64,000 bases of DNA from a phage. This document shows positions 3,475 through 61,702 of the stretch, in pieces (position 1 is the first letter of the stretch; every line of letters starts with the position of its first letter). The translations under genes and the position numbers were made by a program. Below the pieces are notes generated by a model. The model did not search any database, had not been told where the DNA came from, and saw only the letters and a list, made by a program, of their open reading frames with translations. The stretch lies in the sequence record OZ335964.1; one strand, 5' to 3'.

Positions 3475-3493
3475 TTTAAACCTCCCATATAAC

Positions 3494-3528
3494 AGAAAAC
3501 GGGGCTAGTATAAAACTAGTCCCCGTTT
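3494..3528 (-). terminator. rho-independent terminator downstream of alt
   Basis: 11-bp perfect stem ACGGGGCTAGT/ACTAGTCCCCGT followed on minus strand by T-rich tract. Confidence 0.6.
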
Positions 3529-3552
3529 GAGTCAACCATTATTTCTTAAAAA

Positions 3553-5886: not shown

Positions 5887-5922
5887 TTGATACTCCTTAG
5901 TAGTTCGTTTCGGTATGTGTGC

Positions 5923-5951
5923 ATTATAGGGGATCGATGATCCCCTGTCAA
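5923..5951 (-). promoter_or_regulatory. sigma70-type early promoter cassette
   Basis: Minus strand: TTGACA - 17 nt palindromic spacer GGGGATCATCGATCCCC - TATAAT, then conserved leader CCGAAACGAACT and RBS. Confidence 0.6.
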
Positions 5952-5958
5952 CAACTTT

Positions 5959-6477
5959 TTAGTTATTTTTTAATTGCTCATCTTGCAATAAAGCAATCAC
6001 ATGCTGGCGATGTTCTTCCGACTGAGGCACACCGAAAAAGTTTGTTTTGTAGAAATACTCTAATCGGTCTTCTCGTGTGCTCTCTTCCATCATGATCGCG
6101 GGTAGTCCGAGATTTCGGAAACGTCGCTTTTCTGCTGGCGTAAAATCGCTGTAATACAGCATAGAATCATCATTACCAGCAATGCTAAACTCATCCTTCA
6201 TGAAAGAGAATATTGCGTTTAAACGCTGTTTACCGTCCACGATTTCGATCTCATAGCGAGAGCCATCATCAATCTTAGCCATTGCGATAGCACCAACCGG
6301 AAAATCATTAATCAGGTTTTCGATAAACATACGTTTGTTTTCTGTGTCCCATACTAAAGGACGCTGATAATCTGGGTTCATGTTGATAAAGCCATCTTCT
6401 AGCCATGCTTCATAGACAGATATGACAAAGTTTTTAGTATTGGTATAGTAACGGCGTTTAGGCGTTAAACGGTTCAT
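5959..6477 (-). CDS. DUF262/ParB-like domain protein (GmrS N-terminal-domain-like)
   Basis: Motifs DYQRPLVW, FPVG and VDGKQRLNAI (DGQQR-like); start MNRLTPKRR chosen by RBS AGGAGA and coupling to upstream stop (track ORF extends to 6513). Confidence 0.6.
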   Translation of the reverse strand: MNRLTPKRRYYTNTKNFVISVYEAWLEDGFINMNPDYQRPLVWDTENKRMFIENLINDFPVGAIAMAKIDDGSRYEIEIVDGKQRLNAIFSFMKDEFSIAGNDDSMLYYSDFTPAEKRRFRNLGLPAIMMEESTREDRLEYFYKTNFFGVPQSEEHRQHVIALLQDEQLKNN

Positions 6478-6478
6478 G

Positions 6479-6811
6479 TTATAGTCTCCTGAATGGATCA
6501 TCACGTAAATCAATATCTTTTAAGAACTCATCCCATGAATGGCGGATATTGTTCTTAATTCTCCAGATAAGCGCAGGGATTGAACGCTCTCCCATCTGGA
6601 AGTAAGGATCATATGATCCGTATGCCCAATATGCTACTACAATTCCACAATCAGCGCAATAGTATTCTATTTCACTTGCTGGCGACCAAAGTCCATCAAT
6701 ATGATCGGTGATCTTGCTTTCGATGTTATGGCTATGGCAATCAGGGCAACGGATGCAATGACCTTGTTTATCGTAATTTGACGTTAGCGAATACTTAAAC
6801 AATCTCATCAT
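6479..6811 (-). CDS. Cys-rich zinc-ribbon protein
   Basis: 110 aa with CIRCPDC ... CADCG cysteine clusters; start overlaps upstream stop (ATGATGA). Confidence 0.5.
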   Translation of the reverse strand: MMRLFKYSLTSNYDKQGHCIRCPDCHSHNIESKITDHIDGLWSPASEIEYYCADCGIVVAYWAYGSYDPYFQMGERSIPALIWRIKNNIRHSWDEFLKDIDLRDDPFRRL

Positions 6812-7572
6812 AGATCCTTATTGGCTTCAAATACTGCCTTTGCGAATCCTCGCGGGGTAAGTGACCTGATAGTCTTTGTTCTGGTTCCTTTCCCGCCTAG
6901 CTTAGAATGCTGTTTACTGTACCCTTTCTCAATCGGCAACGGTTTCTTTTCTGGCATTATAAAGCCTTGTCCGGTCCATAAGCAAGTCTTTTTCGGGTAC
7001 ATATCACGGGCGGCAATATACTCAGGAAACGTAGGATGTATATCATCTTCCGGCAAATAACCGCCATATTCCCACGGGTGGAACATGTAATCAGGCTTAC
7101 GCCACATGCTAGAGATAACGCTTACAGGATTCTCTATCATGTAGGGAACTCCTAGCCATTCACCCAAATAAGCTGTTATTTTAGCTGCCCGTACATCATG
7201 AACTTGAATTAATGGTCCTTGCTCTCGTTTCTTTCGTTCAAAGTGTGCAGCGCCACTAACAGCTAAATTTGAACAGCTAGGAAACGCAAAGATCATATCC
7301 GGTTTGCCCCATTCAAGATCCATCGCCCTTTCCAACCAATCCAGATCTATCCATGAATTAACATAAGTTAAATTTGGGTGTTCAAATCGAGTGTTATACT
7401 TTTTATATGTTCCATGATCGGCATCATCAGCATTAAAGCAGATCACTTTATGACCTGCTTTAGCCCATTCTAGACCCATAATACCGGACCCATCGAATGT
7501 ACAAAATATAAGTTTACTTTCCGTGGTTTTCATGATAGCCATACTCTCTTTCTGCTTTGGTTCTAACTGCAA
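6808..7572 (-). CDS. SAM-dependent methyltransferase-like protein with C5-cytosine-MTase-type motifs
   Basis: 254 aa; FDGSGIMG (motif I FxGxG), FAFPSCS (motif IV Pro-Cys), MIENPVS (motif VI ENV-like) with canonical spacing; no obvious TRD or motifs VIII-X, so function uncertain. Confidence 0.45.
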   Translation of the reverse strand: MQLEPKQKESMAIMKTTESKLIFCTFDGSGIMGLEWAKAGHKVICFNADDADHGTYKKYNTRFEHPNLTYVNSWIDLDWLERAMDLEWGKPDMIFAFPSCSNLAVSGAAHFERKKREQGPLIQVHDVRAAKITAYLGEWLGVPYMIENPVSVISSMWRKPDYMFHPWEYGGYLPEDDIHPTFPEYIAARDMYPKKTCLWTGQGFIMPEKKPLPIEKGYSKQHSKLGGKGTRTKTIRSLTPRGFAKAVFEANKDL

Positions 7573-8050
7573 CGGCTTCTTCTAGTGTGTCGAAACACCC
7601 TAGATATTTTCTATCACCGCGTCGACCGCCGCCAATTCTAACTACCCATTTATTGTATTTGTTTTTATGTATTCCACTATGTCCGCTTGTATTCTTTTTA
7701 GACTTTGTTTGATTTCTCATGTTGTCGCGGTGTAGTTTAAGTTCAAAGTTAACCGCTCTATTATCTGTCTTAATGTGATTAATATGATCTACTTCATATC
7801 CTTCTGGTATAGGTCCATTGTGGATAATATAACATACTCGATGAACTTTGTAGTTAATAATTTTACCGTCAATTTTTATTGACGATTCAAGATAACGTCC
7901 ACCACTTCCTAGTGACCCGACCTCCTTTCCAGCCCATGCAGCATTCCATTGTTTTATTCTTGATGGGTGTATATCTGTTCTCTCCTTCCATGTAAGGATA
8001 CCAGTGTCAGGATCATAATTAAAGTATTTCTTCCAGTCTATATTGTTCAC
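7514..8050 (-). CDS. HNH homing endonuclease with AP2-like DNA-binding domain
   Basis: 178 aa; HNH_3-type motif VDHINHIKTDNRAVNFEL plus AP2-like SGHSGIHKNKYNKWVVRIGGGRRGDRKYLGCFDTLEEAVAVR. Confidence 0.75.
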   Translation of the reverse strand: MNNIDWKKYFNYDPDTGILTWKERTDIHPSRIKQWNAAWAGKEVGSLGSGGRYLESSIKIDGKIINYKVHRVCYIIHNGPIPEGYEVDHINHIKTDNRAVNFELKLHRDNMRNQTKSKKNTSGHSGIHKNKYNKWVVRIGGGRRGDRKYLGCFDTLEEAVAVRTKAEREYGYHENHGK

Positions 8051-8298
8051 GCTGCCCCCATTGGTTTGATAGTAACAGAATCTAAAAGACCTTTGTTAGC
8101 CAGTTCGCGGCAAGTTTTCAGATCCGTAACTTCCCAGCCAGCCGCAATCAGGTTATCAATCAGGCTGTTAGCAACTTCTTCGCTCATGAAAGAGCACTGT
8201 TTGCCGATGGTGTAGCGTACACGCTGTAATTTCAGTTTACGGAAGCCTTTAACGTTCAGGTCTTTAGCGATTTTCTTTGCGGTTTCGATGTTAGCCAT
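8047..8298 (-). CDS. hypothetical small early protein
   Basis: 83 aa; promoter cassette and RBS upstream; stop overlaps HNH start. Confidence 0.5.
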   Translation of the reverse strand: MANIETAKKIAKDLNVKGFRKLKLQRVRYTIGKQCSFMSEEVANSLIDNLIAAGWEVTDLKTCRELANKGLLDSVTIKPMGAA

Positions 8299-8338
8299 TG
8301 TTTGATTCTCCTAAGTGGTATCTCGTCTTGATGTTTGT

Positions 8339-8368
8339 ATTGTAGGGGATCTCCCGATCCCCTGTCAA
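8339..8368 (-). promoter_or_regulatory. sigma70-type early promoter cassette
   Basis: TTGACA - 18 nt palindromic spacer GGGGATCGGGAGATCCCC - TACAAT on minus strand. Confidence 0.55.
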
Positions 8369-8381
8369 CAACTTTTTTAGA

Positions 8382-8855
8382 TTATTTGCACCAAATTCGA
8401 ATTATTTCGTCTCGTTCAAATTTCTGCCAGATTACTCGGTCACCCGCTGCCATGATACTGACAAATCCAGTTGTGTTTCCTGTGTACTTGCTTTTAGTCT
8501 CGGCATCATATTCAAAGAATGGTGCTTTAAGATCGCTAAACTCATCTTTTCCCACAAACTTCATAACATGACGATGCGCGTAATATTCGCTTCTTAGTGT
8601 TGTTGTGATAGTTCCGTCATTATTTGATTTCAGATGTAATTCTGCATCTTCATAAAGACTTGCATCTCGTTGTTTACTTTCAATACCGTCGTTATATGTT
8701 GATTTCGTTGCACTCCAACATTGATAAGTTTTATCAACATTTTCGATCTTTTCCTGTGTCATATCAAAAAGCGGTGCAACCTTTTTCTTAGCCGCGTGTG
8801 CTACGTTGGTCATGGACAGTGCTGCAACAACCACAATAGCAATAATCTTCTTCAT
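8382..8855 (-). CDS. secreted/periplasmic protein, unknown function
   Basis: 157 aa; N-terminal signal peptide MKKIIAIVVVAALSMTNVAHA. Confidence 0.6.
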   Translation of the reverse strand: MKKIIAIVVVAALSMTNVAHAAKKKVAPLFDMTQEKIENVDKTYQCWSATKSTYNDGIESKQRDASLYEDAELHLKSNNDGTITTTLRSEYYAHRHVMKFVGKDEFSDLKAPFFEYDAETKSKYTGNTTGFVSIMAAGDRVIWQKFERDEIIRIWCK

Positions 8856-8885
8856 AGTATTCTCCTTTTGTTTTGTGTTGGGAGT

Positions 8886-8914
8886 ATCTTAGCGACACTC
8901 CCGTTATTTTTCAA
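8886..8914 (-). promoter_or_regulatory. early promoter cassette (variant)
   Basis: TTGAAA - 17 nt - TAAGAT on minus strand; -10 lies in loop of GGGAGT..ACTCCC inverted repeat. Confidence 0.45.
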
Positions 8915-8919
8915 ATCTT

Positions 8920-9201
8920 TTATTCGTGATTAGTTTCGATGTTATACATTTTGCACCAGTTCAGCCAATCGCCCAGATCTTGATAGTTGATGCTTTTATC
9001 TGCTGCCATCGTTTTGGTCTTGATACCCATATGTGCGTTATGAGTAAGCATTTTTACAGTGAACTCAATTTTATCGCCTTTAGCTTTAACATCAACCAGT
9101 TTGGTCCACTGGCTACCAGCGCCGCGAATGTTCATACCAACGATGTTTCCGATGTATGCTTCTTTGTTTTTCAGGATTTCGGTTGCTTTGATGAATTTCA
9201 T
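8920..9201 (-). CDS. hypothetical protein
   Basis: 93 aa ORF with RBS and promoter cassette upstream. Confidence 0.5.
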   Translation of the reverse strand: MKFIKATEILKNKEAYIGNIVGMNIRGAGSQWTKLVDVKAKGDKIEFTVKMLTHNAHMGIKTKTMAADKSINYQDLGDWLNWCKMYNIETNHE

Positions 9202-9234
9202 TTTTGATTCTCCAGTTCGTTTCGGTATGGGTGT

Positions 9235-9263
9235 ATTATGCTATGTTCTTACTTTGGTGTCAA
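9235..9263 (-). promoter_or_regulatory. sigma70-type early promoter cassette
   Basis: TTGACA - 17 nt - CATAAT on minus strand, followed by conserved leader and RBS. Confidence 0.5.
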
Positions 9264-9270
9264 CAACTTT

Positions 9271-9540
9271 TTAGATATTTTCAGAAATAAATTTTAAAAC
9301 TTGACGTAAATGTTTCTCATCTTTGATAGTCGCCGGAAGTTCTTCTTTTACTTCCTGTGCAAGATAGATATTTCCGTTCCAAGTGAAAGATCCGTCTTCG
9401 TTTACGCGATAGCTGAACATCCACTCGCAATCATTTTCGATTTCATATACACACAGAAGGGTGTAATCGTTAAAGCTATTGATTTCAAGGTCGAAGCCGT
9501 GACGTTTTGCAAAGTTGGTAGTGGTTTTAGTCAGTGCCAT
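9271..9540 (-). CDS. hypothetical protein
   Basis: 89 aa; shares near-identical leader/RBS with the 8047..8298 gene. Confidence 0.5.
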   Translation of the reverse strand: MALTKTTTNFAKRHGFDLEINSFNDYTLLCVYEIENDCEWMFSYRVNEDGSFTWNGNIYLAQEVKEELPATIKDEKHLRQVLKFISENI

Positions 9541-9580
9541 TGTTTGATTCTCCTAAGTGGTATCTCGTTTCGATGGGTGT

Positions 9581-9609
9581 ATTATGCTATACACAGGATC
9601 TGGTGTCAA
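9581..9609 (-). promoter_or_regulatory. sigma70-type early promoter cassette
   Basis: TTGACA - 17 nt - CATAAT on minus strand. Confidence 0.5.
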
Positions 9610-9633
9610 TGCCTTTTTTAAAAATTTTGGCAA

Positions 9634-9659
9634 TAAAAAAGCCGACACTAAGGTCGGCT
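9634..9659 (-). terminator. rho-independent terminator
   Basis: GCCGAC-ACTAAG-GTCGGC hairpin followed on minus strand by T-run. Confidence 0.6.
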
Positions 9660-9666
9660 AATAAAA

Positions 9667-9975
9667 TCAACGAGATAGATAATCGTTTTGCGCGATCTGG
9701 TCGGCGTATGCTGGTGTTATGTCAATCGCCAACACTTTAACGCGTGCTTTCTTGCGACCTGGGTTTTCTCGTAACCAGTGCTCATGACCGTGCACATTTT
9801 TATATTTTGATGCGGTTTCGAAGGTACGGATCGGACCTGGATAATCTGCGTAAAGGATCTCTAGGTCTTCGGTGATGTAAAAATATACATCATAATTACT
9901 GTTCTCTAGTTTAAGCAGAGAATTGCGAAATTGTGGTAAATTCTCGCGGGTAAATTCAACTACAAGATTTTTCAT
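9667..9975 (-). CDS. HxHW/AVDV paralogue family member 1
   Basis: 102 aa from MKNLVVEF (RBS GAGGA upstream); track ORF's 49-aa extension runs through a terminator hairpin; motifs YFYITEDLEI, HGHEHW, VLAIDI. Confidence 0.55.
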   Translation of the reverse strand: MKNLVVEFTRENLPQFRNSLLKLENSNYDVYFYITEDLEILYADYPGPIRTFETASKYKNVHGHEHWLRENPGRKKARVKVLAIDITPAYADQIAQNDYLSR

Positions 9976-9997
9976 AGTGATATCCTCATTCAGATAG

Positions 9998-10022
9998 ATT
10001 AAAAGGGGCTTAATGCCCCCTA
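9998..10022 (-). terminator. rho-independent terminator
   Basis: AGGGGC-TTAAT-GCCCCT hairpin with minus-strand T-run. Confidence 0.55.
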
Positions 10023-10024
10023 TA

Positions 10025-10312
10025 TTAAAACAGTCCTTCCTGTACACCGTAGTAGAGTTCATCGCTGATAATTTCATTAATGCGACGGTGTGCATATTCC
10101 TGATTTGCGAAGTTGTCAGCAAGTTCTACTTTAGTTTCGCCGTCATGAGTCCATTTAGTGATAACTTTACCATCTGCAAATTTGAAGTTGAACTCTTTAG
10201 CTACCGCATCGCGTACCAGACATGCAAACTTGTTGTTGCGGATTGCATTATCGGTTTCGTGTGCAGCGTGAGCAAATTTGTTAACTTTCAGAGTGATAGT
10301 AATGTATGCCAT
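10025..10312 (-). CDS. hypothetical protein
   Basis: 95 aa ORF with cassette promoter and RBS. Confidence 0.5.
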   Translation of the reverse strand: MAYITITLKVNKFAHAAHETDNAIRNNKFACLVRDAVAKEFNFKFADGKVITKWTHDGETKVELADNFANQEYAHRRINEIISDELYYGVQEGLF

Positions 10313-10358
10313 AATTTGATTCTCCTAGTTAGAAAGTGTATCTCGTTTCGATGGGTGT

Positions 10359-10387
10359 ATTATGCTATACACCCGATCCGGTGTCAA
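10359..10387 (-). promoter_or_regulatory. sigma70-type early promoter cassette
   Basis: TTGACA - 17 nt - CATAAT on minus strand. Confidence 0.5.
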
Positions 10388-10394
10388 CAACTTT

Positions 10395-10688
10395 TTATAA
10401 AATAATTTTTTGATATTTTTCTATGATGTTCGTGTAATTCACATCAACCGCTATCACCGTTGCTTCGAATCCACCGTTTAGCCAATGGCTATGGTCATGA
10501 TCGTGAAAGAAACCAAGACCAGTGCGAAGACCTTCTTTATATTCGGCGCGTACATTTAGAGAATCGTCGATAAACAGATAAAACCATGAATTTTTACTAG
10601 GATTGATGATACAACCTTTCAGATTAGGGAGAATATCACGACTAAGAATAAACTTATCACCTACTTTGAACATAATATTAGTCCTCAC
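10395..10688 (-). CDS. HxHW/AVDV paralogue family member 2
   Basis: 97 aa; FYLFIDDSLNV, HDHDHSHW, VIAVDV. Confidence 0.55.
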   Translation of the reverse strand: MRTNIMFKVGDKFILSRDILPNLKGCIINPSKNSWFYLFIDDSLNVRAEYKEGLRTGLGFFHDHDHSHWLNGGFEATVIAVDVNYTNIIEKYQKIIL

Positions 10689-10998
10689 TTATAAGGTCAA
10701 ACCAATTGTTTTTCGCATAATGCTTAATGCGTGCTTGATCTGCTTCCGCTGGTGATAGATTCCATGCAACCACTACAACTTCTGACGCATCGTCATCCGT
10801 TTCTGATACCCAATGATTGTGATTCATACAGTTATTTGCGATCGAGTGAGCAAATGATTTCATCACTGGAGACGTATAATCATAGTAACGGATTTTCAGA
10901 TTTTCATCAACGTACAAATAGATCGTATAAGGTTTATATTCAGTAACCAGTAACAGACAGTTACGCAATTCTGGGAAAATATTTTTAGTTAATTTCAT
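10678..10998 (-). CDS. HxHW/AVDV paralogue family member 3
   Basis: 106 aa; IYLYVDENLKI, NHNHW, VVVVAW; N-terminus similar to member 1. Confidence 0.55.
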   Translation of the reverse strand: MKLTKNIFPELRNCLLLVTEYKPYTIYLYVDENLKIRYYDYTSPVMKSFAHSIANNCMNHNHWVSETDDDASEVVVVAWNLSPAEADQARIKHYAKNNWFDLISED

Positions 10999-11200
10999 AT
11001 TCTAGTTCTCCGTAATATACGGTAATCCATTTTTCTTCATACTTTGTATCTTTCCAACACACAATCCCGTTTACTGTGCAATCTTTGGAATTGACGAATG
11101 ATTCATATTGTTCTGCATCTTCCATCATTGCATGAGCGGTCTTTTCATCGAATATATCGCAGATCGCTTTATATGCTCGATAATCTTTAAATTTGCTCAT
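10985..11200 (-). CDS. hypothetical small protein, tandem duplicate A
   Basis: Starts MSKFKDYRAYK (track ORF has 4 extra codons); paralogue of adjacent 11203..11412 (MSKFKDYKAY...MMEDA). Confidence 0.5.
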   Translation of the reverse strand: MSKFKDYRAYKAICDIFDEKTAHAMMEDAEQYESFVNSKDCTVNGIVCWKDTKYEEKWITVYYGELEYEIN

Positions 11201-11202
11201 AA

Positions 11203-11412
11203 TTAAGACCACTCAAGAGTTTTTGAAAACACATCTATCCATTGTTGAGTATATGCGGTTTCTTTCCATGATACAATACCAGTCGAATAATGGTTTTTGT
11301 TTCCAGAAAAGGACGGGCATTTTGATGCATCTTCCATCATCTTTTCGGCGAACTCCGCGTCATATACCCGCAGGATCTGTTGATATGCTTTATAATCTTT
11401 AAATTTGCTCAT
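11203..11412 (-). CDS. hypothetical small protein, tandem duplicate B
   Basis: 69 aa; paralogue of 10985..11200. Confidence 0.5.
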   Translation of the reverse strand: MSKFKDYKAYQQILRVYDAEFAEKMMEDASKCPSFSGNKNHYSTGIVSWKETAYTQQWIDVFSKTLEWS

Positions 11413-11677
11413 AATTGTTAACTACCTTATCAGCTTCTTTTATTGTTTTTACATCAACTGCGATAATCCGTAAAGGTTCGTCGAAGGTCCACCAATGATC
11501 GTGAATATCGGCTTGTGATTTATCACCAAAGGAATCACGAATATCATTTTTACATTTATAGCTAATGTGACCTTCATAGTCAACATAAAGGTAATTATCG
11601 AAAATCGGCGTTTTTAAGATCATACCGAAAAATCTTTCTTTGTGTGTCTTATCCAGTGTTGCAGTAATTCGCATCAT
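11399..11677 (-). CDS. HxHW/AVDV paralogue family member 4
   Basis: 92 aa; LYVDYEGHISY, HDHW, IIAVDV. Confidence 0.55.
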   Translation of the reverse strand: MMRITATLDKTHKERFFGMILKTPIFDNYLYVDYEGHISYKCKNDIRDSFGDKSQADIHDHWWTFDEPLRIIAVDVKTIKEADKVVNNYEQI

Positions 11678-11689
11678 AATATATTCCTC

Positions 11690-11869
11690 TTAGAAAGGGA
11701 TGGTCATTTCTTGAGCTTGTACATTCTCGTTAGGATTAAACTTCATCCAACCGATATTGTCTACCAGCATATGTACATTTTTATCATATCCTACGTGAGT
11801 AGTCAACACTAAATGTGCTTTACCTTCAACGATGATTTCCATGTACTTCTGAACTTCGATAGCTTTCAT
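11690..11869 (-). CDS. small ORF (59 aa), below track threshold
   Basis: Hand-translated MKAIEVQKYMEIIVEGKAHLVLTTHVGYDKNVHMLVDNIGWMKFNPNENVQAQEMTIPF; RBS GGAGAATCAAAA and promoter cassette directly upstream. Confidence 0.4.
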   Translation of the reverse strand: MKAIEVQKYMEIIVEGKAHLVLTTHVGYDKNVHMLVDNIGWMKFNPNENVQAQEMTIPF

Positions 11870-11902
11870 TTTTGATTCTCCGTTTGTTGTCTTGATGGGA
11901 GT

Positions 11903-11931
11903 ATCTTACTACTCCCTTTAATCATTGTCAA
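11903..11931 (-). promoter_or_regulatory. early promoter cassette
   Basis: TTGACA - 17 nt - TAAGAT; -10 inside GGGAGTA..TACTCCC hairpin. Confidence 0.5.
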
Positions 11932-11934
11932 CTA

Positions 11935-12102
11935 TTATTTGTTAATTTCTGGTGCGTTGCTCGGATAGTAACCTTCTTTAACACCTAGATATTTTGCAAC
12001 CATTCCGGGGATCTTCTGTGCTACTACGATATCGAATTTCAGGTAGTCTTCACCGTGGTTTGCTACAATGTATGCTTCGCATTCTGCTTTAGTCTGGAAC
12101 AT
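11935..12102 (-). CDS. hypothetical small protein
   Basis: 55 aa from MFQTK with RBS AGGAGAATAAAA; track ORF's extension uses a GTG that overlaps the promoter -10 TATAAT. Confidence 0.45.
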   Translation of the reverse strand: MFQTKAECEAYIVANHGEDYLKFDIVVAQKIPGMVAKYLGVKEGYYPSNAPEINK

Positions 12103-12135
12103 TTTTATTCTCCTATATCTCGTTGGTATGTGTGC

Positions 12136-12164
12136 ATTATAGGGGATCACCGATCCCCTGTCAA
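12136..12164 (-). promoter_or_regulatory. sigma70-type early promoter cassette
   Basis: TTGACA - 17 nt palindromic spacer GGGGATCGGTGATCCCC - TATAAT on minus strand. Confidence 0.6.
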
Positions 12165-12169
12165 CAACT

Positions 12170-12463
12170 TTATAATGCTTTATATGCGTATTTCATAAAT
12201 TTGTCTGCCACTTCATTGGCATGTTCAGATTCTACGCCTGATTCGAGAACAATAGCTAGGTCGGTTTCGTCATTCCCGCCGTACCAATGATTTGATGTTC
12301 GATTTTTTTCAATTGGAAATTGGTCACTTTTATCTGTGCGACAAAATACATCTAAATGCTCGTCGATGTAAAAGATCCAATCCTCATAAAGAATAACGGT
12401 ATTAGCCAGATTTTTATTACCTTCAACGAAAGGTTCGGCTACAAACAAATTAGTATGTTCCAT
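12170..12463 (-). CDS. HxHW/AVDV paralogue family member 5
   Basis: 97 aa; IFYIDEHLDV, SNHW, LAIVLE. Confidence 0.5.
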   Translation of the reverse strand: MEHTNLFVAEPFVEGNKNLANTVILYEDWIFYIDEHLDVFCRTDKSDQFPIEKNRTSNHWYGGNDETDLAIVLESGVESEHANEVADKFMKYAYKAL

Positions 12464-12520
12464 AGTATTTTCCTCAATTTGTGGGAGAGTATTGCCCCTC
12501 CCGATGATTGTTATATTATA

Positions 12521-12841
12521 TCACACAAAATGGCGTGTCAATGCTTCTTTTGCGGTTCCGCTAAGACTTTCGATCTCGCCTGGCATAACATCAACTGCCA
12601 GAACTTCTACAACATCCTCTGATCCTAACCAGTGAGTATGACCTTTGTAGAACTTGATAACCAGACTACCTTCCTCGTCCCATTTAACGCTATCGCTAGC
12701 CCACCACACATCACCGTCGATAAAGTTGATGTAAAGCACACTACGCCACATTGAATTAATTACTTTCAATACTGCGCCTTTCATCTCTTCCACGGTGTGG
12801 TCTTCCATTTTGAAGACCTCACCTACCTGAACTTTTGCCAT
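12521..12841 (-). CDS. HxHW/AVDV paralogue family member 6
   Basis: 106 aa; LYINFIDGDV, HTHW, VLAVDV. Confidence 0.55.
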   Translation of the reverse strand: MAKVQVGEVFKMEDHTVEEMKGAVLKVINSMWRSVLYINFIDGDVWWASDSVKWDEEGSLVIKFYKGHTHWLGSEDVVEVLAVDVMPGEIESLSGTAKEALTRHFV

Positions 12842-12858
12842 TTAGTCACCTCTCTTTA

Positions 12859-13038
12859 TTACATAACAATCACGCCAGCCGTTGAAAGTTGATGTTTCAA
12901 CTGAGCATTTTCTGCTACTGTCAAATCAATGATTTCTTGTGACGCTGCAATCATATAACCATTGGTGATATTGTTTTGCATCAGTTCAATGGTTTCTTCG
13001 TTGTAGCGGATTTTAGCGATGATTTCGTTGAAGTTCAT
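12859..13038 (-). CDS. small ORF (59 aa), below track threshold
   Basis: Hand-translated MNFNEIIAKIRYNEETIELMQNNITNGYMIAASQEIIDLTVAENAQLKHQLSTAGVIVM; RBS and promoter cassette upstream. Confidence 0.4.
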   Translation of the reverse strand: MNFNEIIAKIRYNEETIELMQNNITNGYMIAASQEIIDLTVAENAQLKHQLSTAGVIVM

Positions 13039-13072
13039 GTTTGATTCTCCTAGTTCGTTTCGGTATGTGTGT

Positions 13073-13101
13073 AGTATAGGGGATCACCGATCCCCTGTCA
13101 A
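13073..13101 (-). promoter_or_regulatory. sigma70-type early promoter cassette
   Basis: TTGACA - 17 nt palindromic spacer GGGGATCGGTGATCCCC - TATACT. Confidence 0.55.
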
Positions 13102-13114
13102 CAACTTTTTTGAA

Positions 13115-20897: not shown

Positions 20898-20938
20898 CTT
20901 GATACTCCTTAGTAAGTTAGTTTCGTTTCGATGGGGGT

Positions 20939-21186: not shown

Positions 21187-21219
21187 TTTGATTCTCCTGT
21201 GTTTCGTTTCGATGGGGGT

Positions 21220-21248
21220 ATCTTACTACCCCCGCTATTCAGTGTCAA
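21220..21248 (-). promoter_or_regulatory. early promoter cassette
   Basis: TTGACA - 17 nt - TAAGAT; near-identical to the 20939..20967 copy. Confidence 0.5.
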
Positions 21249-21255
21249 CTACTTT

Positions 21256-21474
21256 TTACTTGTTGTATTCATTCCACCATTGAGTGAGCTTATCAATTAT
21301 TTTTGTGTTTCTATCCAACTTATCCCACCGTTTTCGAGGGTTTATCAACCGGAATAGGTAAGGTGTACTTGTTAAGTGAACTCTGTCAATATAGTGATTG
21401 ATGTACTGTTTTTCAATTCTAAGTTTCATCTTTTTACGATGAAAATATGCAATGACTTGTTCTTCTGTTTCCAT
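21256..21474 (-). CDS. hypothetical small protein
   Basis: 72 aa basic protein. Confidence 0.45.
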   Translation of the reverse strand: METEEQVIAYFHRKKMKLRIEKQYINHYIDRVHLTSTPYLFRLINPRKRWDKLDRNTKIIDKLTQWWNEYNK

Positions 21475-21498
21475 ATGTTCCTCCGTTTCGATGTGCGT

Positions 21499-21528
21499 AT
21501 TATGCTATGGCAAGATCTGATTGTCAAC
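21499..21528 (-). promoter_or_regulatory. sigma70-type early promoter cassette
   Basis: TTGACA - 18 nt - CATAAT on minus strand. Confidence 0.45.
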
Positions 21529-21540
21529 ACCCAATAACAA

Positions 21541-23731: not shown

Positions 23732-23762
23732 AATAAAATCCTCACTTGTTTTTGATGGTTGT

Positions 23763-23791
23763 ATTATAGCGGGGATTTCTCCCCGCGTCAA
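23763..23791 (-). promoter_or_regulatory. sigma70-type early promoter cassette
   Basis: TTGACG - 17 nt palindromic spacer CGGGGAGAAATCCCCGC - TATAAT. Confidence 0.5.
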
Positions 23792-23800
23792 CACTTATTT

Positions 23801-26044
23801 TTACAGTTTGCAAGATGAACATTCGCTAGCGTCTTCCGTACCATCAGCACCATCACGCACGTTAGCGTAATACAGTGTCTTGAGGCCGTAATATTGAGCA
23901 AATAACATATCATCTAATACATCAGCAATATCGACTTTACCAGTCTTATAAGTGCTTGGATCATAGGATGTATTGGAACTAATCGCCTGGTCGACAAACT
24001 TCTGCATAATAGCTGCCAGTGTCAGATAAGGCTTGTTACCTTTCTTGATCAGTGTCCAAAGCAAGTCAATAACATCAGCATTATTCTCTACGTTCGGAAT
24101 AACCTGATTAAATTGCCCTTCTTTCGATCCTTTAACCGATACAATCCCGCGAGGCGGTTCAATACCGTTTGTGCTGTTAGACACCTGAGAAGACGACTCA
24201 CAAGGCATCAGCGCCGAAAGCGTACTGTTACGAATGCCATATTTTTTCAGGTCTTCGCGCAGTTCTTCCCAATCCATCTCATACACCGGGTCAACCAGTT
24301 CATCTACTGTCTTTTTGTACCAGTCGATAGGCAGTTCACCGCGACCATAACGTGTTTCGTGCATCAGTTCGCAAGCACCCTTCTCTTTAGCCAGTTGCAC
24401 ACTAGCCTTAATCAGAGCATATTGCAAGCGTTCAAACGTTTTATGCGTAAACTCGTTGGCGTCTTCATATGTGAAGAAATTATCCGCCAGATATGATGCA
24501 AAGTTAGTCACACCAACACCCAGAGAGCGACGTTTTTTTGCTGTCAGAGCTTGTTCTACGGGATAATCCTGGTAATCTAACAAGTTGTCAAGTGCACGCA
24601 CCATAACCATAGCAATGCGTTCTACTTCTTCCATGTTTTCGATATCGAAATTACCTAAAACATATGCTGCCAAAGTACATAGGCTGATCTCTGAATCATC
24701 ACGCCCCATTGGTTTAGTAGGCAGTGCAATTTCGCAACACAGGTTAGATTGTTTAATCGGTGCTACATTGCGAATAAACGCCCCGTGATTGTTCATGTTG
24801 TCTGTGAACGCTGGATAGATTCGACCAGTGTTAAAACGTTCAATTGCCACCGCTAAAAACAGGTCTTCGGCTTTAACACGAGTTTTACGAACACTCGGAT
24901 CTTTTTCCAGTTTTTCGTAAAGCTGGCGGAAACCTTCCTCATCTCGGAAGTACAGATCCCACAACAAGCCACCTGCAACATCTGGACTAAACAGAGTAAT
25001 GTAATCCCGTTTAAGGAATCGCTCTACCATCAGGTTATTAATCTGTACGCCGTAATCAAGATGGCGAATGCGGTTATCTTCTACCCCTTTGTTGTTCTTC
25101 AACACAATAAGACTTTCAAACTCTAAATGCCACATTGGGTAATAGAGAGTCGCCGCCCCGCCACGAATACCGCCTTGTGAGCATGACTTAACGGCAGTCT
25201 GAAAATGTTTCCAGAATGGGATAACGCCAGTATGACGAACTTCACCATGCCCGATCTTAGATCCTTCCGCGCGAATCATGCCAGCGTTGATACCGATGCC
25301 AGCACGCTTACTAATATACTTGATGATTGCATTTGCTGTTTCGTTGATGCCCTGCAATGAGTCATCAGATTCGATCACCACACACGAACTAAATTGGCGT
25401 GTTGGAGTACGCACACCAGCCATAATCGGAGTAGGAAGAGAAATTTGCTTATTAGCAACAGCATTATAAAAATCAATCACATGTTCAAGTCGATTTTCTG
25501 TCTCTTCTTGATGTAAACACATACCGATCAGCATATACGCAAATTGCGGTGTTTCGATGATTTTCTTAGTGCTGCGATCCTGAACAAGATATTTCTCTTT
25601 TAATTGCATCGCACCAGCATAGGTCATTTTAAAATCAAGTTTATGATCGATGAATTTCTCCAGATATTCCACTTCTTCACGGGAATACTTTTGCAGAATT
25701 TCGCGATCATATTTTCCGGTTGCAATATTACGCTCAATATGGCTGTAAAAATCAATCGGTTGGAATTGACCGTATACTGATTTACGAAGCGCGAACATTG
25801 CAAGGTTACTTGCTACATATTGATAATCAGGTGTTTCTACAGTAATGTTGTCTGCGGCGACCTTAATCAATACTTTCTGGATATCGTTGGTAGACATACC
25901 TTCTGTCAGAAGTGGTTCAACCATATCAAACAATTCATATGGATCAACGTTATGACCTTCGGCTGCCGCTTCCAGAATTTTCATTACTTTTTCTTTTTCA
26001 AACGGAACAGTCAGACCGGAAGACTTAACAACATTTTTAATCAT
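23801..26044 (-). CDS. nrdA: ribonucleotide reductase large subunit
   Basis: 747 aa (T4 NrdA 754 aa); ATP-cone N-terminus, class I RNR catalytic core. Confidence 0.9.
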   Translation of the reverse strand: MIKNVVKSSGLTVPFEKEKVMKILEAAAEGHNVDPYELFDMVEPLLTEGMSTNDIQKVLIKVAADNITVETPDYQYVASNLAMFALRKSVYGQFQPIDFYSHIERNIATGKYDREILQKYSREEVEYLEKFIDHKLDFKMTYAGAMQLKEKYLVQDRSTKKIIETPQFAYMLIGMCLHQEETENRLEHVIDFYNAVANKQISLPTPIMAGVRTPTRQFSSCVVIESDDSLQGINETANAIIKYISKRAGIGINAGMIRAEGSKIGHGEVRHTGVIPFWKHFQTAVKSCSQGGIRGGAATLYYPMWHLEFESLIVLKNNKGVEDNRIRHLDYGVQINNLMVERFLKRDYITLFSPDVAGGLLWDLYFRDEEGFRQLYEKLEKDPSVRKTRVKAEDLFLAVAIERFNTGRIYPAFTDNMNNHGAFIRNVAPIKQSNLCCEIALPTKPMGRDDSEISLCTLAAYVLGNFDIENMEEVERIAMVMVRALDNLLDYQDYPVEQALTAKKRRSLGVGVTNFASYLADNFFTYEDANEFTHKTFERLQYALIKASVQLAKEKGACELMHETRYGRGELPIDWYKKTVDELVDPVYEMDWEELREDLKKYGIRNSTLSALMPCESSSQVSNSTNGIEPPRGIVSVKGSKEGQFNQVIPNVENNADVIDLLWTLIKKGNKPYLTLAAIMQKFVDQAISSNTSYDPSTYKTGKVDIADVLDDMLFAQYYGLKTLYYANVRDGADGTEDASECSSCKL

Positions 26045-28594: not shown

Positions 28595-28625
28595 AATATA
28601 ATCCTCTCTTTGTTTCTATGTTTGT

Positions 28626-28653
28626 ATTATACATCATCTGTGTTCGGCGTCAA
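28626..28653 (-). promoter_or_regulatory. sigma70-type promoter
   Basis: TTGACG - 16 nt - TATAAT on minus strand upstream of 28265..28594. Confidence 0.45.
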
Positions 28654-28979
28654 CCTTTTTGTTCCATGAAAAGCGGTGCTGTTTCTTCTTTCAGTTTAAT
28701 AACTAGCGCGGAAACTTCATCAAGAAAATCTTTTTCCATATGAGCAAGCATTGATTTAGAATCTTTGATGACTTTCAAAGAATATTCACTTAGATTTCCT
28801 TTTCCTAACAATAATGCGGGATACACACTATGTGGGATCTCGATTTCATGATATTCACTCATAGTATAATATTTGTGAATTTTTAAATCTATATTTCTTC
28901 GTTGTACGTCTACATCAGCAATGACATACAGAAGTTCGATTTTATCACTTTTCTGGGAAAGGGTAGCATTCAAAAACAT
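28650..28979 (-). CDS. hypothetical protein
   Basis: 109 aa ORF with RBS GGAGGA. Confidence 0.5.
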   Translation of the reverse strand: MFLNATLSQKSDKIELLYVIADVDVQRRNIDLKIHKYYTMSEYHEIEIPHSVYPALLLGKGNLSEYSLKVIKDSKSMLAHMEKDFLDEVSALVIKLKEETAPLFMEQKG

Positions 28980-29008
28980 TGTTAATCCTCCGTTGTTTCG
29001 ATGAGTTC

Positions 29009-29036
29009 ATTATACATTACCTCGCCAACATGTCAA
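29009..29036 (-). promoter_or_regulatory. sigma70-type promoter
   Basis: TTGACA - 16 nt - TATAAT on minus strand. Confidence 0.45.
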
Positions 29037-29062
29037 CACCTTTTTCATAAATTTTTAGGCAA

Positions 29063-44634: not shown

Positions 44635-44637
44635 TCC

Positions 44638-46624: not shown

Positions 46625-46658
46625 AATATATTCCTCAGTGTTTTGTCTTGATGGGAGT

Positions 46659-46687
46659 ATCTTACTACTCCCCTGTTCTGGTGTCAA
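46659..46687 (-). promoter_or_regulatory. early promoter cassette
   Basis: TTGACA - 17 nt - TAAGAT; -10 within GGGAGTA..TACTCCC hairpin. Confidence 0.5.
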
Positions 46688-46706
46688 CTACTTTTTAAAT
46701 TTCTTC

Positions 46707-46850: not shown

Positions 46851-46882
46851 TTTTGATTCTCCTTCGTTGTCTTGATGAGTTT

Positions 46883-46911
46883 AGTATAGGGGATCGCCGA
46901 TCCCCTGTCAA
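46883..46911 (-). promoter_or_regulatory. sigma70-type early promoter cassette
   Basis: TTGACA - 17 nt palindromic spacer GGGGATCGGCGATCCCC - TATACT. Confidence 0.55.
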
Positions 46912-46920
46912 CCGCTATTT

Positions 46921-47133
46921 TTAATTTTTACCCGCTCGTGCATTAATACGCATTTTCTGCATAGCCATGATCTGGGTTATTGCTTCTTCTTTACGTTCTT
47001 GTGTGATAACGTGACCAGATTCCGCAAACTCTCCAGCGACTTCTTCCACGATCTCGCGAATTTGAGAACGTCCAAAGATGCGGTTTCCTTCGTAGCTCAT
47101 AAACTCGGTTACTACTTGCTCGATAGATTTCAT
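46921..47133 (-). CDS. hypothetical small protein
   Basis: 70 aa from MKSIEQVV (RBS GGAGAATCAC); track ORF has 15-codon extension. Confidence 0.45.
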   Translation of the reverse strand: MKSIEQVVTEFMSYEGNRIFGRSQIREIVEEVAGEFAESGHVITQERKEEAITQIMAMQKMRINARAGKN

Positions 47134-47172
47134 GTGATTCTCCTTTCGTTTGGTATGGGAGTATGTTACTAC

Positions 47173-47201
47173 TCCCATTTCTTTACGTCAACAACTATTT
47201 T
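47173..47201 (-). promoter_or_regulatory. early promoter cassette
   Basis: TTGACG - 17 nt - TAACAT; GGGAGTAGTAACATACTCCC hairpin spans -10. Confidence 0.4.
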
Positions 47202-47425
47202 AAATTATTTTCGACCTTCATCCATTCCGCGTATTCTTGCGCGGCTACTTTCGGATTTAGTCCGTCTTCGTACATTGCTTCAAGTAATTCTTCGTCGGTG
47301 GGCTTATACCCTAGATAAGCCTCCACCTGATTTTTCCAAATTTTATACCAGTTCATATTATCACCAGTCAAGAGCGCGTGTCTCTGCGTCTTCCCATGCT
47401 TGGTCCATAACAGCCTTGAAAACAT
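47195..47425 (-). CDS. hypothetical small protein
   Basis: 76 aa ORF; an internal start at MNWYKIW (47356) would remove the 65-nt overlap with the upstream gene. Confidence 0.4.
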   Translation of the reverse strand: MFSRLLWTKHGKTQRHALLTGDNMNWYKIWKNQVEAYLGYKPTDEELLEAMYEDGLNPKVAAQEYAEWMKVENNLK

Positions 47426-47633: not shown

Positions 47634-47664
47634 CTTTGATTCTCCTTTTGTTTGATATGGGAGT

Positions 47665-47693
47665 ATATTACTACTCCCATTATTCACTGTCAA
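47665..47693 (-). promoter_or_regulatory. early promoter cassette
   Basis: TTGACA - 17 nt - TAATAT; GGGAGTAGTAATATACTCCC hairpin spans -10. Confidence 0.45.
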
Positions 47694-47699
47694 TAGATT

Positions 47700-47906
47700 T
47701 TATTCGATTATTTCAAATTTTGCTACCGGATCACCGTTTCGTTTGGTTGCAGTAAGTTTCTGTTTGTCAAAGTAAAACCAAATATAGTCACCATGAACTA
47801 CATCAAATGTGTTTCCGCTATTGTCCGTGAATACATCAACATCATAATCACACCCAACACTAAAGCTATAATTGATGTGATCGGTTTCAATGCAACGTAC
47901 TTTCAT
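47700..47906 (-). CDS. hypothetical small protein
   Basis: 68 aa from MKVRCIETD (RBS AAGGAGATTC); C-terminal VAKFEIIE resembles 20968..21186. Confidence 0.45.
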   Translation of the reverse strand: MKVRCIETDHINYSFSVGCDYDVDVFTDNSGNTFDVVHGDYIWFYFDKQKLTATKRNGDPVAKFEIIE

Positions 47907-47937
47907 TTTTGAATCTCCTTTTTGTTTCACTGTGTGT

Positions 47938-47966
47938 ATTATGCAATGCTGGATTATGGAAGTCAA
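47938..47966 (-). promoter_or_regulatory. sigma70-type promoter
   Basis: TTGACT - 17 nt - CATAAT on minus strand. Confidence 0.4.
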
Positions 47967-47980
47967 ACAACTTTTCAAAT

Positions 47981-54814: not shown

Positions 54815-55010
54815 TTTGATTCTCCTTTGTTACTAGATAACGAATTTGGTCTTGCATTGCGATCAGTTCCCAGCGTGCTACTTTCATCATGGAAACTGAC
54901 TCTTTGAACATAATATTAGCTTTTTCCTTCTCCCCTGTCAAGTAGATTTCTGCAATTTTTTCACAAAATTTTTGAGTTTCTTCATTCTTAAACGGTTTCA
55001 TATAAGTCAA
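54807..55010 (-). CDS. hypothetical small protein
   Basis: 67 aa; promoter cassette upstream. Confidence 0.45.
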   Translation of the reverse strand: MTYMKPFKNEETQKFCEKIAEIYLTGEKEKANIMFKESVSMMKVARWELIAMQDQIRYLVTKENQNA

Positions 55011-55031
55011 CCTTTTGTTTTCGATGGGGAC

Positions 55032-55060
55032 ATTATGATATATCCCCGATCCAGTGACAA
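55032..55060 (-). promoter_or_regulatory. early promoter cassette
   Basis: TTGTCA - 17 nt - CATAAT; GGGGA..TCCCC inverted repeat spans -10. Confidence 0.4.
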
Positions 55061-55067
55061 CAGATTT

Positions 55068-55367
55068 TTAATCTTTTTTCAGTGCATCCATTACTCGCTC
55101 TGCGATCAGTTCTCGTAAGCACTGATAACCATGATATTTGATGGCAATGTCACGCAGATCATTAACCAGTTCCCGTACTTCATGGTCTTTCAGATCGTCT
55201 CTGTATTTCGATTTAATCGTATCTTTAGGTGGATTGCGGATAACCTGAAAACCTTGTTCTGCAATCACTGCGGCTTCTCGCTGGCGTTCATGCTGTACTG
55301 TATTTTTGATCAGGTCTGCTTCCATGAACTTTGCCATACTCATCATCATGTTATTCTTTTTGCTCAT
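55068..55367 (-). CDS. hypothetical protein
   Basis: 99 aa from MSKKNN (RBS GAGGA); track ORF has 12-codon extension. Confidence 0.45.
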   Translation of the reverse strand: MSKKNNMMMSMAKFMEADLIKNTVQHERQREAAVIAEQGFQVIRNPPKDTIKSKYRDDLKDHEVRELVNDLRDIAIKYHGYQCLRELIAERVMDALKKD

Positions 55368-55425
55368 TATTAAATCCTCATAAAAGAAAAGGGAGACTCC
55401 CATTATAGAGAATCTCCCTTGTATG

Positions 55426-61641: not shown

Positions 61642-61670
61642 AATTGATTCTCCTTAGTTGGTATGTGTGT

Positions 61671-61699
61671 ATTATTGTCTATCTGGTTTGTGCTGTCAA
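61671..61699 (-). promoter_or_regulatory. sigma70-type promoter
   Basis: TTGACA - 17 nt - AATAAT on minus strand, then RBS AAGGAGAATCAATT. Confidence 0.4.
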
Positions 61700-61702
61700 C
61701 AC

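Follow-up and report, generated by a model that had tools for sequence, protein, structure and literature searches.

We analyzed a 64,000-nucleotide (nt) stretch of phage DNA (sequence record OZ335964.1; hereafter "the window") that carries one promoter module at many intergenic sites on its minus strand, most densely between 5.9 and 13.1 kb. These repeated modules are very probably (we estimate about 0.9) promoter-early stem-loops (PeSLs), the dispersed regulatory cassettes of RB49/phi1-type phages of the genus Krischvirus. A first-pass annotation had noted a resemblance to PeSLs, and this was borne out by locus, by homology and by feature-by-feature comparison with the published definition. 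PeSLs were defined in RB49 and phi1 by Arbiol, Comeau, Kutateladze, Adamia and Krisch (Arbiol et al. 2010, Genome Biol Evol 2:140; PMC2839356), who described 51–52 per genome and studied PeSL193/192, PeSL206/205, PeSL211/210, ORFan192 and ORFan210 within the region between alt and the DNA ligase gene. The first-pass observation thus correctly rediscovers, at its type locus, an element that had been published before, and the phenomenon itself was already known.

Dispersed promoter cassettes in a Krischvirus genome

The assignment follows from the identity of the genome, the locus and the match to individual published elements. The window belongs to Krischvirus, with 92–97% identity to RB49, phi1, JSE, ECD7, GEC-3S and about 60 other coliphage records, and no record identical to it was present among the Krischvirus relatives matched. 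With gene identities taken from annotated relatives, the 5.9–13.1 kb segment lies between alt (3553–5604) and the DNA ligase gene (13584–15086), and corresponds to the alt-to-ligase hyperplastic region, block ORF185–ORF212 of RB49/phi1. Over the aligned stretches, the cassette at 8914 (8856..8928) is identical to RB49 PeSL193/192, and the cassette at 12164 (12104..12176) matches RB49 PeSL206/205 except for a 1-nt indel near the ribosome binding site (RBS). Orthologous sites are annotated as promoters with -35 and -10 signals in the GEC-3S record, and an "early RB49 promoter" is annotated before gene 32 in the RB49 record. A BLAST search of a phage collection with an 81-nt cassette query matched 435 places in 59 of 50,697 phage records, all 59 being Krischvirus of E. 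coli or Shigella, while exact cassette cores occurred in only 3 IMG/VR contigs (two of Krischvirus size and one 4.4-kb fragment). Rfam covariance models gave no match at gathering score anywhere in the window. All computationally checkable defining features of RB49/phi1-type PeSLs were found in the window's cassettes.

Read on the minus strand (5700–13300), the module consists of an A-rich upstream stretch, GTTGTTGACA, a spacer of 16–18 nt, TAnnnT, an A/C-rich leader, AGGAGAATCAAA and ATG, with the A-rich stretch ending in GTTG directly before TTGACA. GTTGTTGACA with at most one mismatch was found 18 times against 6.0 expected (16 of the 18 on the minus strand), and the RBS string AGGAGAATCAAA with at most two mismatches 21 times against 9.2 expected. 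An nhmmer profile built from 14 clear copies, scanned over both strands at a cut-off of E<0.2, recovered these seeds and 8 independent sites. All 22 are minus-strand sites that immediately precede a start codon, each ending at RBS and ATG; the plus strand of the window yielded no match, and the best intragenic match (E=0.37) fell beyond the cut-off. The first-pass annotation had claimed at least 22 minus-strand intergenic sites, at 5.9–13.1, 20.9–23.8, 28.6–29.0, 46.6–48.0, 55.0 and 61.7 kb, and the profile returned both this number and exactly these positions. Ten copies fall in the alt-to-ligase region and others in clusters of small open reading frames (ORFs) at 20.9–23.8 and 46.6–48.0 kb; the profile scan found no cassette in the plus-strand tail-fiber block at 33.7–44.0 kb. 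When the window was scanned together with 16 Krischvirus stretches, 174 of 174 matches were on the transcribed strand, representing 101 distinct cores. Five further sites carry a near-consensus promoter with a different leader (3535, 12541, 30148, 55429 and 62268), and all of these except 30148 are accompanied by a strong hairpin.

Each cassette is about 75–100 bp long. As had been described from the letters, the -35 hexamer is TTGACA (exactly so in 16 of the 22 copies, with one mismatch in the remaining 6) and the spacers measure 16–18 nt. The -10 hexamer is TATAAT, CATAAT, TAAGAT or TATACT in 18 of 22, and in all copies its second position is A and its sixth T. Over the 20 nt preceding the -35, the mean content is 79% for A+T and 50% for A (background 60% and 32%), and the stop codon of the upstream gene usually lies inside this A-rich stretch, a TAA or TAG being visible in most copies. 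Leaders are 24–46 nt long (21 copies measured by script, the copy at 55060 read by eye), those of the family are 61–80% A+C, and every profile match ends in a GGAG-type Shine-Dalgarno sequence (SD) followed by ATG. The proposed conserved leader strings were both recovered, CCGAAACGAAC in 3 copies and CATCGAAACGA in 4, on the minus strand only. Identity continues into the first codons at 5886 and 8298, again as proposed: both sites share ATGGCTAACATCGAA, and the encoded proteins share only the residues MANIE, being otherwise unrelated. MANIE was considered as a sign of paralogy and rejected, as the two proteins have no other similarity.

The scan for the motif inside coding sequence, suggested with the original observation, gave a divided answer, in that the full module never occurs there but bare near-consensus promoters often lie in the 3' ends of genes. 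With at least 11 of 12 positions matching, the minus strand has 33 promoter sites, where 1.4 would be expected, and the plus strand has 0; 17 of the 33 lack the cassette leader, most of them within the 3' end of the preceding gene. Examples of such leaderless minus-strand promoters are found at 33702, 33636, 33079, 32537, 32037, 31489, 30222 and 26191, as well as at 18248, 17244, 57904, 54445, 52487, 51599 and 3005; another near-consensus promoter, at 37297, is antisense to tail-fiber gene 34. MotA and middle promoters have been reported absent in RB49, and the same-strand surplus of sigma70 promoters fits this. A low-stringency promoter scan of 5–14 kb gave 33 sites against 28.4 expected, which is not above chance. 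Promoter enrichment is limited to high-scoring sites and the full module.

Hairpins of the cassettes

Fold energies and structures are taken from refined folding, the initial hairpin finder having given stems that were too short. Folds of -12 to -21 kcal/mol with z-scores of -1.5 to -6.6 were obtained for 18 of the 20 sites folded, the copy at 9263 having no hairpin and that at 9609 a weak one; degraded PeSL copies have also been described in the published papers. Among the 22 profile sites, 15 have strong hairpins, 1 a weak one and 6 none (~70% with a hairpin). Three classes can be distinguished: hairpins in the spacer (GGGGATC-N3/4-GATCCCC; GCGGGGA-gaaa-TCCCCGC), stems of 7–9 bp over the -10 (GGGAGTA/TACTCCC; GGGGGTA/TACCCCC), and stems of 8 bp over CATAAT (GGGTGTAT/ATACACCC; GGGGATAT/ATGTCCCC). 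The first-pass annotation was right that the spacer can form the palindrome GGGGATC...GATCCCC, and overstated its frequency with "often", since it occurs in 5 of the 22 copies, or 6 if GCGGGGA...TCCCCGC is included. Its placement of the -10 hexamer in a hairpin loop holds in part, the remainder of the hexamer lying in the 3' arm. Dam-dependent regulation through the GATC sites of the spacer palindrome was considered and dropped, the other hairpin classes containing no GATC.

The stems covary. One pair is AT in 15, GC in 5 and GT in 4 cases, and other pairs combine TA (11) with GC (6) and GC (12) with AT (5); paired cells amount to 76–95%, compared to 24–75% when the partner column is slid. Because stem sequences change while pairing is kept, the hairpin structure, rather than a particular sequence, is under constraint. 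Each hairpin precedes the predicted transcription start of its own cassette, and only transcripts that continue from the unit before it would thus contain the hairpin. Of the sites folded or scanned, just three (55429, 3535 and 62268) have a T/U-run after the stem. A terminator scan of 5–14 kb called none of the PeSL hairpins as an intrinsic terminator, and called instead canonical terminators at 9659–9640, 10021–10004 and 5652–5666.

The individual cassettes and promoters, all on the minus strand, are as follows (E, nhmmer E-value; energies in kcal/mol; z, fold z-score; junctions are positions of gene-content differences from related phages).

5888..5963 (-): PeSL upstream of the ORF185 homolog; perfect TTGACA-17-TATAAT; spacer hairpin GGGGATCatcGATCCCC; leader CCGAAACGAAC; E=5e-15; -14.1, z -3.2; ORF186 indel junction 5886–5927
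8302..8381 (-): PeSL upstream of the ORF190 homolog; TTGACA-18-TACAAT; hairpin GGGGATCgggaGATCCCC; E=4e-14; -17.2, z -4.1; the overlap at the ORF191 indel junction, 8301–8388, takes in the entire cassette
8856..8928 (-): PeSL193/192; TTGAAA-17-TAAGAT; hairpin GGGAGTGTC...GATACTCCC over the -10; E=0.085; -16.8, z -6.6
9203..9277 (-): PeSL upstream of the ORF193 homolog; TTGACA-17-CATAAT; degenerate copy with no hairpin; E=7.5e-13; z +0.08; isolated homology island 9227–9291 relative to RB49
9544..9623 (-): PeSL upstream of the ORF194 homolog; weak hairpin, with the canonical terminator 9659–9640 just upstream; E=4.8e-14; -6.8; ORF195/196 indel junction 9562–9658
10316..10400 (-): PeSL upstream of the ORF198 homolog; hairpin GGGTGTAT-agcata-ATACACCC, CATAAT in loop and 3' arm; E=2.4e-17; -12.1; JSE replacement junction at 10430
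11871..11944 (-): PeSL upstream of the ORF204 homolog; hairpin GGGAGTA-gtaaga-TACTCCC over the -10 TAAGAT; E=1.3e-13; -13.3, z -3.8
12104..12176 (-): PeSL206/205; perfect TTGACA-17-TATAAT; hairpin GGGGATCggtGATCCCC
12464..12545 (-): promoter with a hairpin downstream of the -10 (GGGAGGG...CTCTCCC), its -35 within the 3' end of the ORF208 homolog; not matched by nhmmer; -20.9; ORF207 deletion junction at RBS/ATG, 12461–12477
13041..13114 (-): PeSL upstream of the ORF209 homolog; TTGACA-17-TATACT; hairpin GGGGATCggtGATCCCC; E=2e-16; ORF210/211 indel junction 13128/13131, with overlap 13023–13111 relative to RB49_OZ; 100% identical copy in phage JK32
20898..20980 (-): PeSL upstream of the ORF225 homolog; hairpin GGGGGTA-gtaaga-TACCCCC, a compensatory variant; E=2.6e-13; junction overlap 20886–20980 in 5 of 5 relatives compared
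21187..21259 (-): PeSL; hairpin GGGGGTA...TACCCCC; E=3.6e-16; -14.7
21475..21540 (-): PeSL-like promoter; TTGACA-17-CATAAT; leader CATCGAAACGG; no strong hairpin; E=8.5e-5
23732..23802 (-): PeSL; TTGACG-17-TATAAT; spacer hairpin GCGGGGAgaaaTCCCCGC; E=3.6e-4; -19.0, z -5.8; junction overlap 23763–23800 relative to LF73P4
28595..28668 (-): PeSL-like promoter; TTGACG-16-TATAAT; no hairpin; E=0.008; gene-swap junction 28660/28982 relative to RB49 ORF239
28980..29050 (-): PeSL-like promoter; TTGACA-16-TATAAT; no hairpin; E=7e-5; other end of the 28660/28982 swap
46625..46701 (-): PeSL; hairpin GGGAGTA...TACTCCC; E=4.8e-17; junction 46702/46900
46851..46925 (-): PeSL; spacer hairpin GGGGATCggcGATCCCC; E=1.4e-12; junctions 46900 and 46931
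47134..47205 (-): PeSL; TTGACG-17-TAACAT; hairpin TGGGAGTA...TACTCCCA; E=4.4e-12; junction overlap 47198–47213, where relatives carry 501 nt extra
47634..47707 (-): PeSL; hairpin TGGGAGTA...TACTCCCA; E=1e-11; junction 47666/47903
47907..47980 (-): PeSL-like promoter; TTGACT-17-CATAAT; no hairpin in the promoter; E=0.19; junction 47903
55002..55074 (-): PeSL; -35 TTGTCA; hairpin GGGGATAT...ATGTCCCC over CATAAT; E=5e-8; -13.2
61642..61715 (-): PeSL-like promoter upstream of the srd homolog; no hairpin; E=0.003
55368..55443 (-): promoter overlapping a canonical terminator, perfect TTGACA-16-TATAAT inside a 13-bp hairpin followed by a T-run; not matched by nhmmer; -21.3, z -4.0; HNH gene insertion junction at 55429
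3475..3549 (-): promoter downstream of alt; TTGACT-17-TATACT overlapping hairpin GGGGACTAG...CTAGCCCC, then TTTTC; -20.0, z -4.1; annotated promoter in GEC-3S

Recombination junctions and gene content

Gene content was compared with eleven relatives over 5–14 kb and with RB49, a second RB49 assembly, LF73P4 and MIZ2 over 14–64 kb. Between 13 (strict count) and 15 (lenient count) of 24 indel or replacement events are linked to cassettes, so that the check proposed in the first-pass annotation, whether recombination junctions fall inside the cassettes, came out in its favor. Cassettes are borne by 27 of ~101 gene boundaries, a rough count from a gene caller that mis-called three minus-strand ORFs (~9310, 46614 and 47155) as plus; against this background the enrichment of junctions has P=0.004 (strict) or 2.5e-4 (lenient). 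Measured by length over 14–64 kb, 12 of 28 junction end points fall within 3.7% of the sequence. The junctions are listed below and are cassette-associated unless otherwise stated; "overlap" marks the seven at which the flanking alignments overlap in the window.

5886–5927: ORF186 indel; overlap
8301–8388: ORF191 indel; overlap
8388/8920: ORF192 indel, the published example
9562–9658: ORF195/196 indel; overlap
10430: one end of a replacement relative to JSE
12461–12477: ORF207 indel, at RBS/ATG only
13128/13131 (13023–13111 relative to RB49_OZ): ORF210/211 indel; overlap at 13023–13111
20886–20980: ORF226 indel; overlap
23763–23800: LF73P4 insertion; overlap
28660/28982: gene swap with RB49 ORF239
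46702/46900: indel or swap
47198–47213: indel, 501 nt extra in relatives; overlap
47666/47903: indel

At the seven overlap junctions, the single cassette of the window corresponds to both of the cassettes that surround the extra gene of the relative, as would be expected of the product of homologous exchange between direct repeats. Orthologous cassettes compared across ten phages point the same way on a finer scale, with loop and -10 alleles that assort independently, both mutually and relative to the leader: each of the four loop/-10 pairings is seen upstream of ORF205, and ORF209 is preceded by three different loop alleles. Published crossovers lie between the -10 and the ATG (PMC2839356), and independent assortment of the cassette halves fits this. 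At one and the same orthologous position (upstream of ORF205 and of ORF209), the loop allele can be GGT in one phage and ACC in another, which suggests loop inversion and/or gene conversion among cassettes.

The window is without ORF186, ORF191, ORF195/196, ORF207, ORF210/211 and ORF226, and has ORF192. The homolog of RB49 ORFan192 (8382–8855, minus strand) is flanked by two cassettes as in RB49; it has a signal-peptide-like start, MKKIIAIVVVAALSMTNVAHA, and no Pfam match. Several other small genes of the region are related to one another. Five small minus-strand proteins of 92–106 amino acids (9667–9975, 10395–10673, 10678–10998, 11399–11677 and 12521–12841) form a divergent paralog family with 21–24% identity, an H-x-H-W motif and a C-terminal (I/L)A(V/I)D(V/I); the one member scanned matched no Pfam family at the curated cut-off. 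The adjacent minus-strand genes 10985–11200 and 11203–11412 are also paralogs, both beginning MSKFKDY. The ORF205 gene with its cassette (11934–12171) is 86% identical to the RB49 ORF191 module (3380–3617 of the compared stretch), which is located elsewhere in relatives, so whole promoter-plus-gene modules have been duplicated. A 172-residue protein with a GmrSD_N (DUF262) nuclease domain (E=5e-20) is encoded at 5959–6477 (minus strand), two genes apart from a gene at 6808–7542 (minus strand) for which relatives carry the annotation C-5 cytosine DNA methyltransferase and Pfam gave no match here; the two genes may act together in restriction or anti-restriction.

Four insertions or replacements are specific to the window and absent from all relatives compared (7515/8046, 30072/30725, 55429/56019 and 62268/63674). 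Each holds a gene with HNH_3, HNH_3 plus AP2, or NUMOD3 with a sub-threshold HNH domain, as identified by domain matches:

7514–8050 (-): HNH/NUMOD3-domain gene
30134–30517 (-): HNH/NUMOD3-domain gene
55426–55989 (-): HNH/NUMOD3-domain gene
62325–63254 (+): HNH/NUMOD3-domain gene

These are free-standing homing endonuclease genes, and they account for the largest junctions lacking cassette-to-cassette exchange. Three of the four adjoin a promoter on one side; 55429/56019 and 62268/63674 each have one end at a promoter cassette and for that reason enter the lenient count. The remaining small differences lie at 11194, 12839–12841, 26061/26093, 44427/44635, 45884/46223 and 57791/57826. Among them, the indel at 44427–44635, located among small minus-strand ORFs, comprises 207 nt here compared to 654 nt in 4 of 4 genomes compared, and its junction contains neither a cassette nor an endonuclease gene. 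The distal tail-fiber gene (gp37 homolog, 41500–43040, plus strand) is 69–71% identical to or unalignable with its counterparts in relatives, while identity in the flanking DNA is ~88% to one side and ~94% to the other; this divergence, which at 41.5–43.0 kb counts among the events without cassette-to-cassette exchange, is mosaicism of the host-range region, unrelated to PeSLs.

Proposed mechanism, alternatives and known systems

In the mechanism we favor, host RNA polymerase with sigma70 would start early transcription at each cassette, and each early unit would be short, with one to a few small ORFan genes. We infer that the cassettes act as early promoters from their near-consensus sequence and orientation, with support from lacZ fusions of orthologs: PeSL206/205 (~13,000 Miller units) and PeSL193/192 were positive, and the PeSLs tested proved difficult to clone in wild-type form (PMC2839356). 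The RB49 early-promoter consensus, as cited via Nolan et al. 2006, agrees with 5'-end mapping of early transcripts. A hairpin in read-through RNA might attenuate or terminate the upstream transcript and so insulate the units from each other. Attenuation was shown with lacZ only for the stem-loop of PeSL211/210 (PMC2839356), a spacer hairpin without a U-tract whose locus is absent from the window, and we give about even odds to its extension to the other hairpins. Since the cassettes provide short stretches of homology at scattered places, all in one orientation, the general recombination machinery of the phage could cross over between them, and such crossovers would delete, insert or swap the intervening genes, possibly through mini-circles. 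This role as a recombination scaffold is supported by the junction pattern described above and by published, sequenced mini-circles, inverse PCR having yielded circles with cassette-to-cassette joints for ORF192 and ORF210 in RB49/phi1 (PMC2839356).

Several observations weigh against this account. Promoter, attenuator and mini-circle function are all transferred to this phage from orthologs; most PeSL hairpins are without a U-tract, their proposed termination deriving from one published reporter construct; and the hairpin is not obligatory, being absent from 6 of the 22 copies. Moreover, junction enrichment fits preferential recombination and preferential survival of promoter-keeping indels alike. 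The cassettes could be ordinary strong early promoters, kept similar by selection on promoter and RBS, and not recombination devices at all; whole-gene indels must end in intergenic DNA, and if only those leaving a working promoter survive, the link between cassettes and junctions would be survivorship. The 17 leaderless near-consensus sigma70 promoters on the same strand suggest that strong promoters are selected everywhere, 9–11 of the 24 events occur without cassette involvement, and the strict count in 14–64 kb alone is marginal (P=0.075). Selection of this kind is nevertheless an unlikely explanation of the whole pattern, given that one cassette here aligns with the two that flank an extra gene elsewhere, that similarity spans the spacer, the leader and the first five codons (5886 and 8298) without an obvious promoter role, that the 5' and 3' halves of the cassettes assort independently at orthologous sites, and that cassette-to-cassette circles have been published (PMC2839356). 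It is very improbable that the repeats are mere remnants of tandem promoter-plus-gene duplication whose genes have since diverged, the cassettes having no role. The region does contain paralogs (the five-member HxHW family and the adjacent pair 10985–11200 and 11203–11412), and the identity of the ORF191/ORF205 pair includes the cassette; however, most cassette-led genes are mutually unrelated (those at 5886 and 8298 have only MANIE in common), the HxHW paralogs are mostly without a cassette of their own, and cassettes also stand 15–55 kb away beside unrelated genes.

The palindromes might instead be sites for a dedicated protein (a repressor, recombinase or nuclease), in which case exchange would follow an integron-like site-specific system and not general recombination. 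GGGGATC-N3/4-GATCCCC is a perfect, operator-like palindrome placed exactly in the spacer and holding two GATC sites, the loop alleles GGT and ACC of orthologous cassettes are each other's exact reverse complement, as if the palindrome had been flipped in DNA, and a GGGG...CCCC-binding protein was raised as a possibility by Arbiol et al. (PMC2839356). We regard such a system as improbable, because at least 4 unrelated stems, at differing positions relative to the -35 and -10 and with compensatory changes, point to a structure and not to a sequence-specific site, and the 6 of 22 copies without a palindrome still occur at junctions (e.g., 28653 and 29036). Crossovers, both observed and published, lie between the -10 and the ATG, outside the hairpin, and no integrase or recombinase has been reported in RB49/phi1 (PMC2839356), although the window was not searched for one. 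A related and still rather unlikely idea is that the hairpins act as extruded DNA hairpins or cruciforms, recognized by a structure-specific phage factor that would trigger cassette exchange. The GGT/ACC loops, and the assortment of the hairpin-bearing 5' half relative to the leader in ten phages, are weak hints of such activity at the DNA level; if true, it would make PeSL arrays a recombinase-independent analog of integrons.

PeSLs are among the few concrete mechanisms proposed by which large lytic phages could swap accessory genes while leaving essential operons intact. The window replicates the published picture, in an independent genome and at the same locus, and opens no new question. 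Modestly new is that junctions are still found in cassettes across a wider set, about a dozen of the ~60 Krischvirus records; slightly new are the way in which the larger gene-content differences divide cleanly between ORFans flanked by PeSLs and genes for HNH endonucleases, and the reverse-complement loop alleles GGT/ACC at orthologous cassettes.

Compared with the PeSLs of RB49/phi1 (PMC2839356), the cassettes share genus, locus, upstream stop codon, TTGACA-N17-TATAAT, G(n)-loop-C(n) hairpin, SD and ATG, as well as the variable position of the hairpin (within the spacer, across the -10 or the -35, or immediately to either side) and the link to indels of ORFans, among them the published ORF192 case and the locus of ORF210. 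Nothing essential differs, the window having another set of cassette-flanked genes and its four HNH genes. The PeSLs/PmSLs of T4/PST and KVP40/nt-1 (Comeau, Arbiol, Krisch 2014; PMC4122927) are likewise composites of promoter and stem-loop that lie in hyperplastic regions beside indels, but they have TTTACW...TAYWAT or TTGYVH...TAWWAT promoters and A/G-rich stems. Unlike these elements, the cassette sequence of the window is confined to Krischvirus within the phage collection searched. Intrinsic terminators resemble PeSL hairpins as GC-rich intergenic RNA hairpins at the end of a transcription unit, and differ in that most PeSL hairpins are without a 3' U-tract and are missed by a terminator scan.

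Morons belong to temperate siphoviruses, form no sequence family and are not thought to move via regulatory sequences. Together with the linkers of Botstein and Campbell, the lambdoid morons of Hendrix share with PeSL-led genes the organization into small self-expressed units with their own promoter and terminator and conserved flanks that permit exchange. Integron cassettes (attC) also form arrays of small genes, supplied with a promoter, with imperfectly conserved folded hairpins at their boundaries and with circular intermediates; their exchange requires IntI, a tyrosine recombinase, and involves attC in the form of a folded single strand, whereas the junctions here lie in the leader, outside the hairpin. 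Because no dedicated recombinase has been reported in RB49/phi1 and the junctions are outside the hairpin, PeSLs are not members of the integron class; the likeness is superficial, and in function PeSLs are like Botstein-type linkers.

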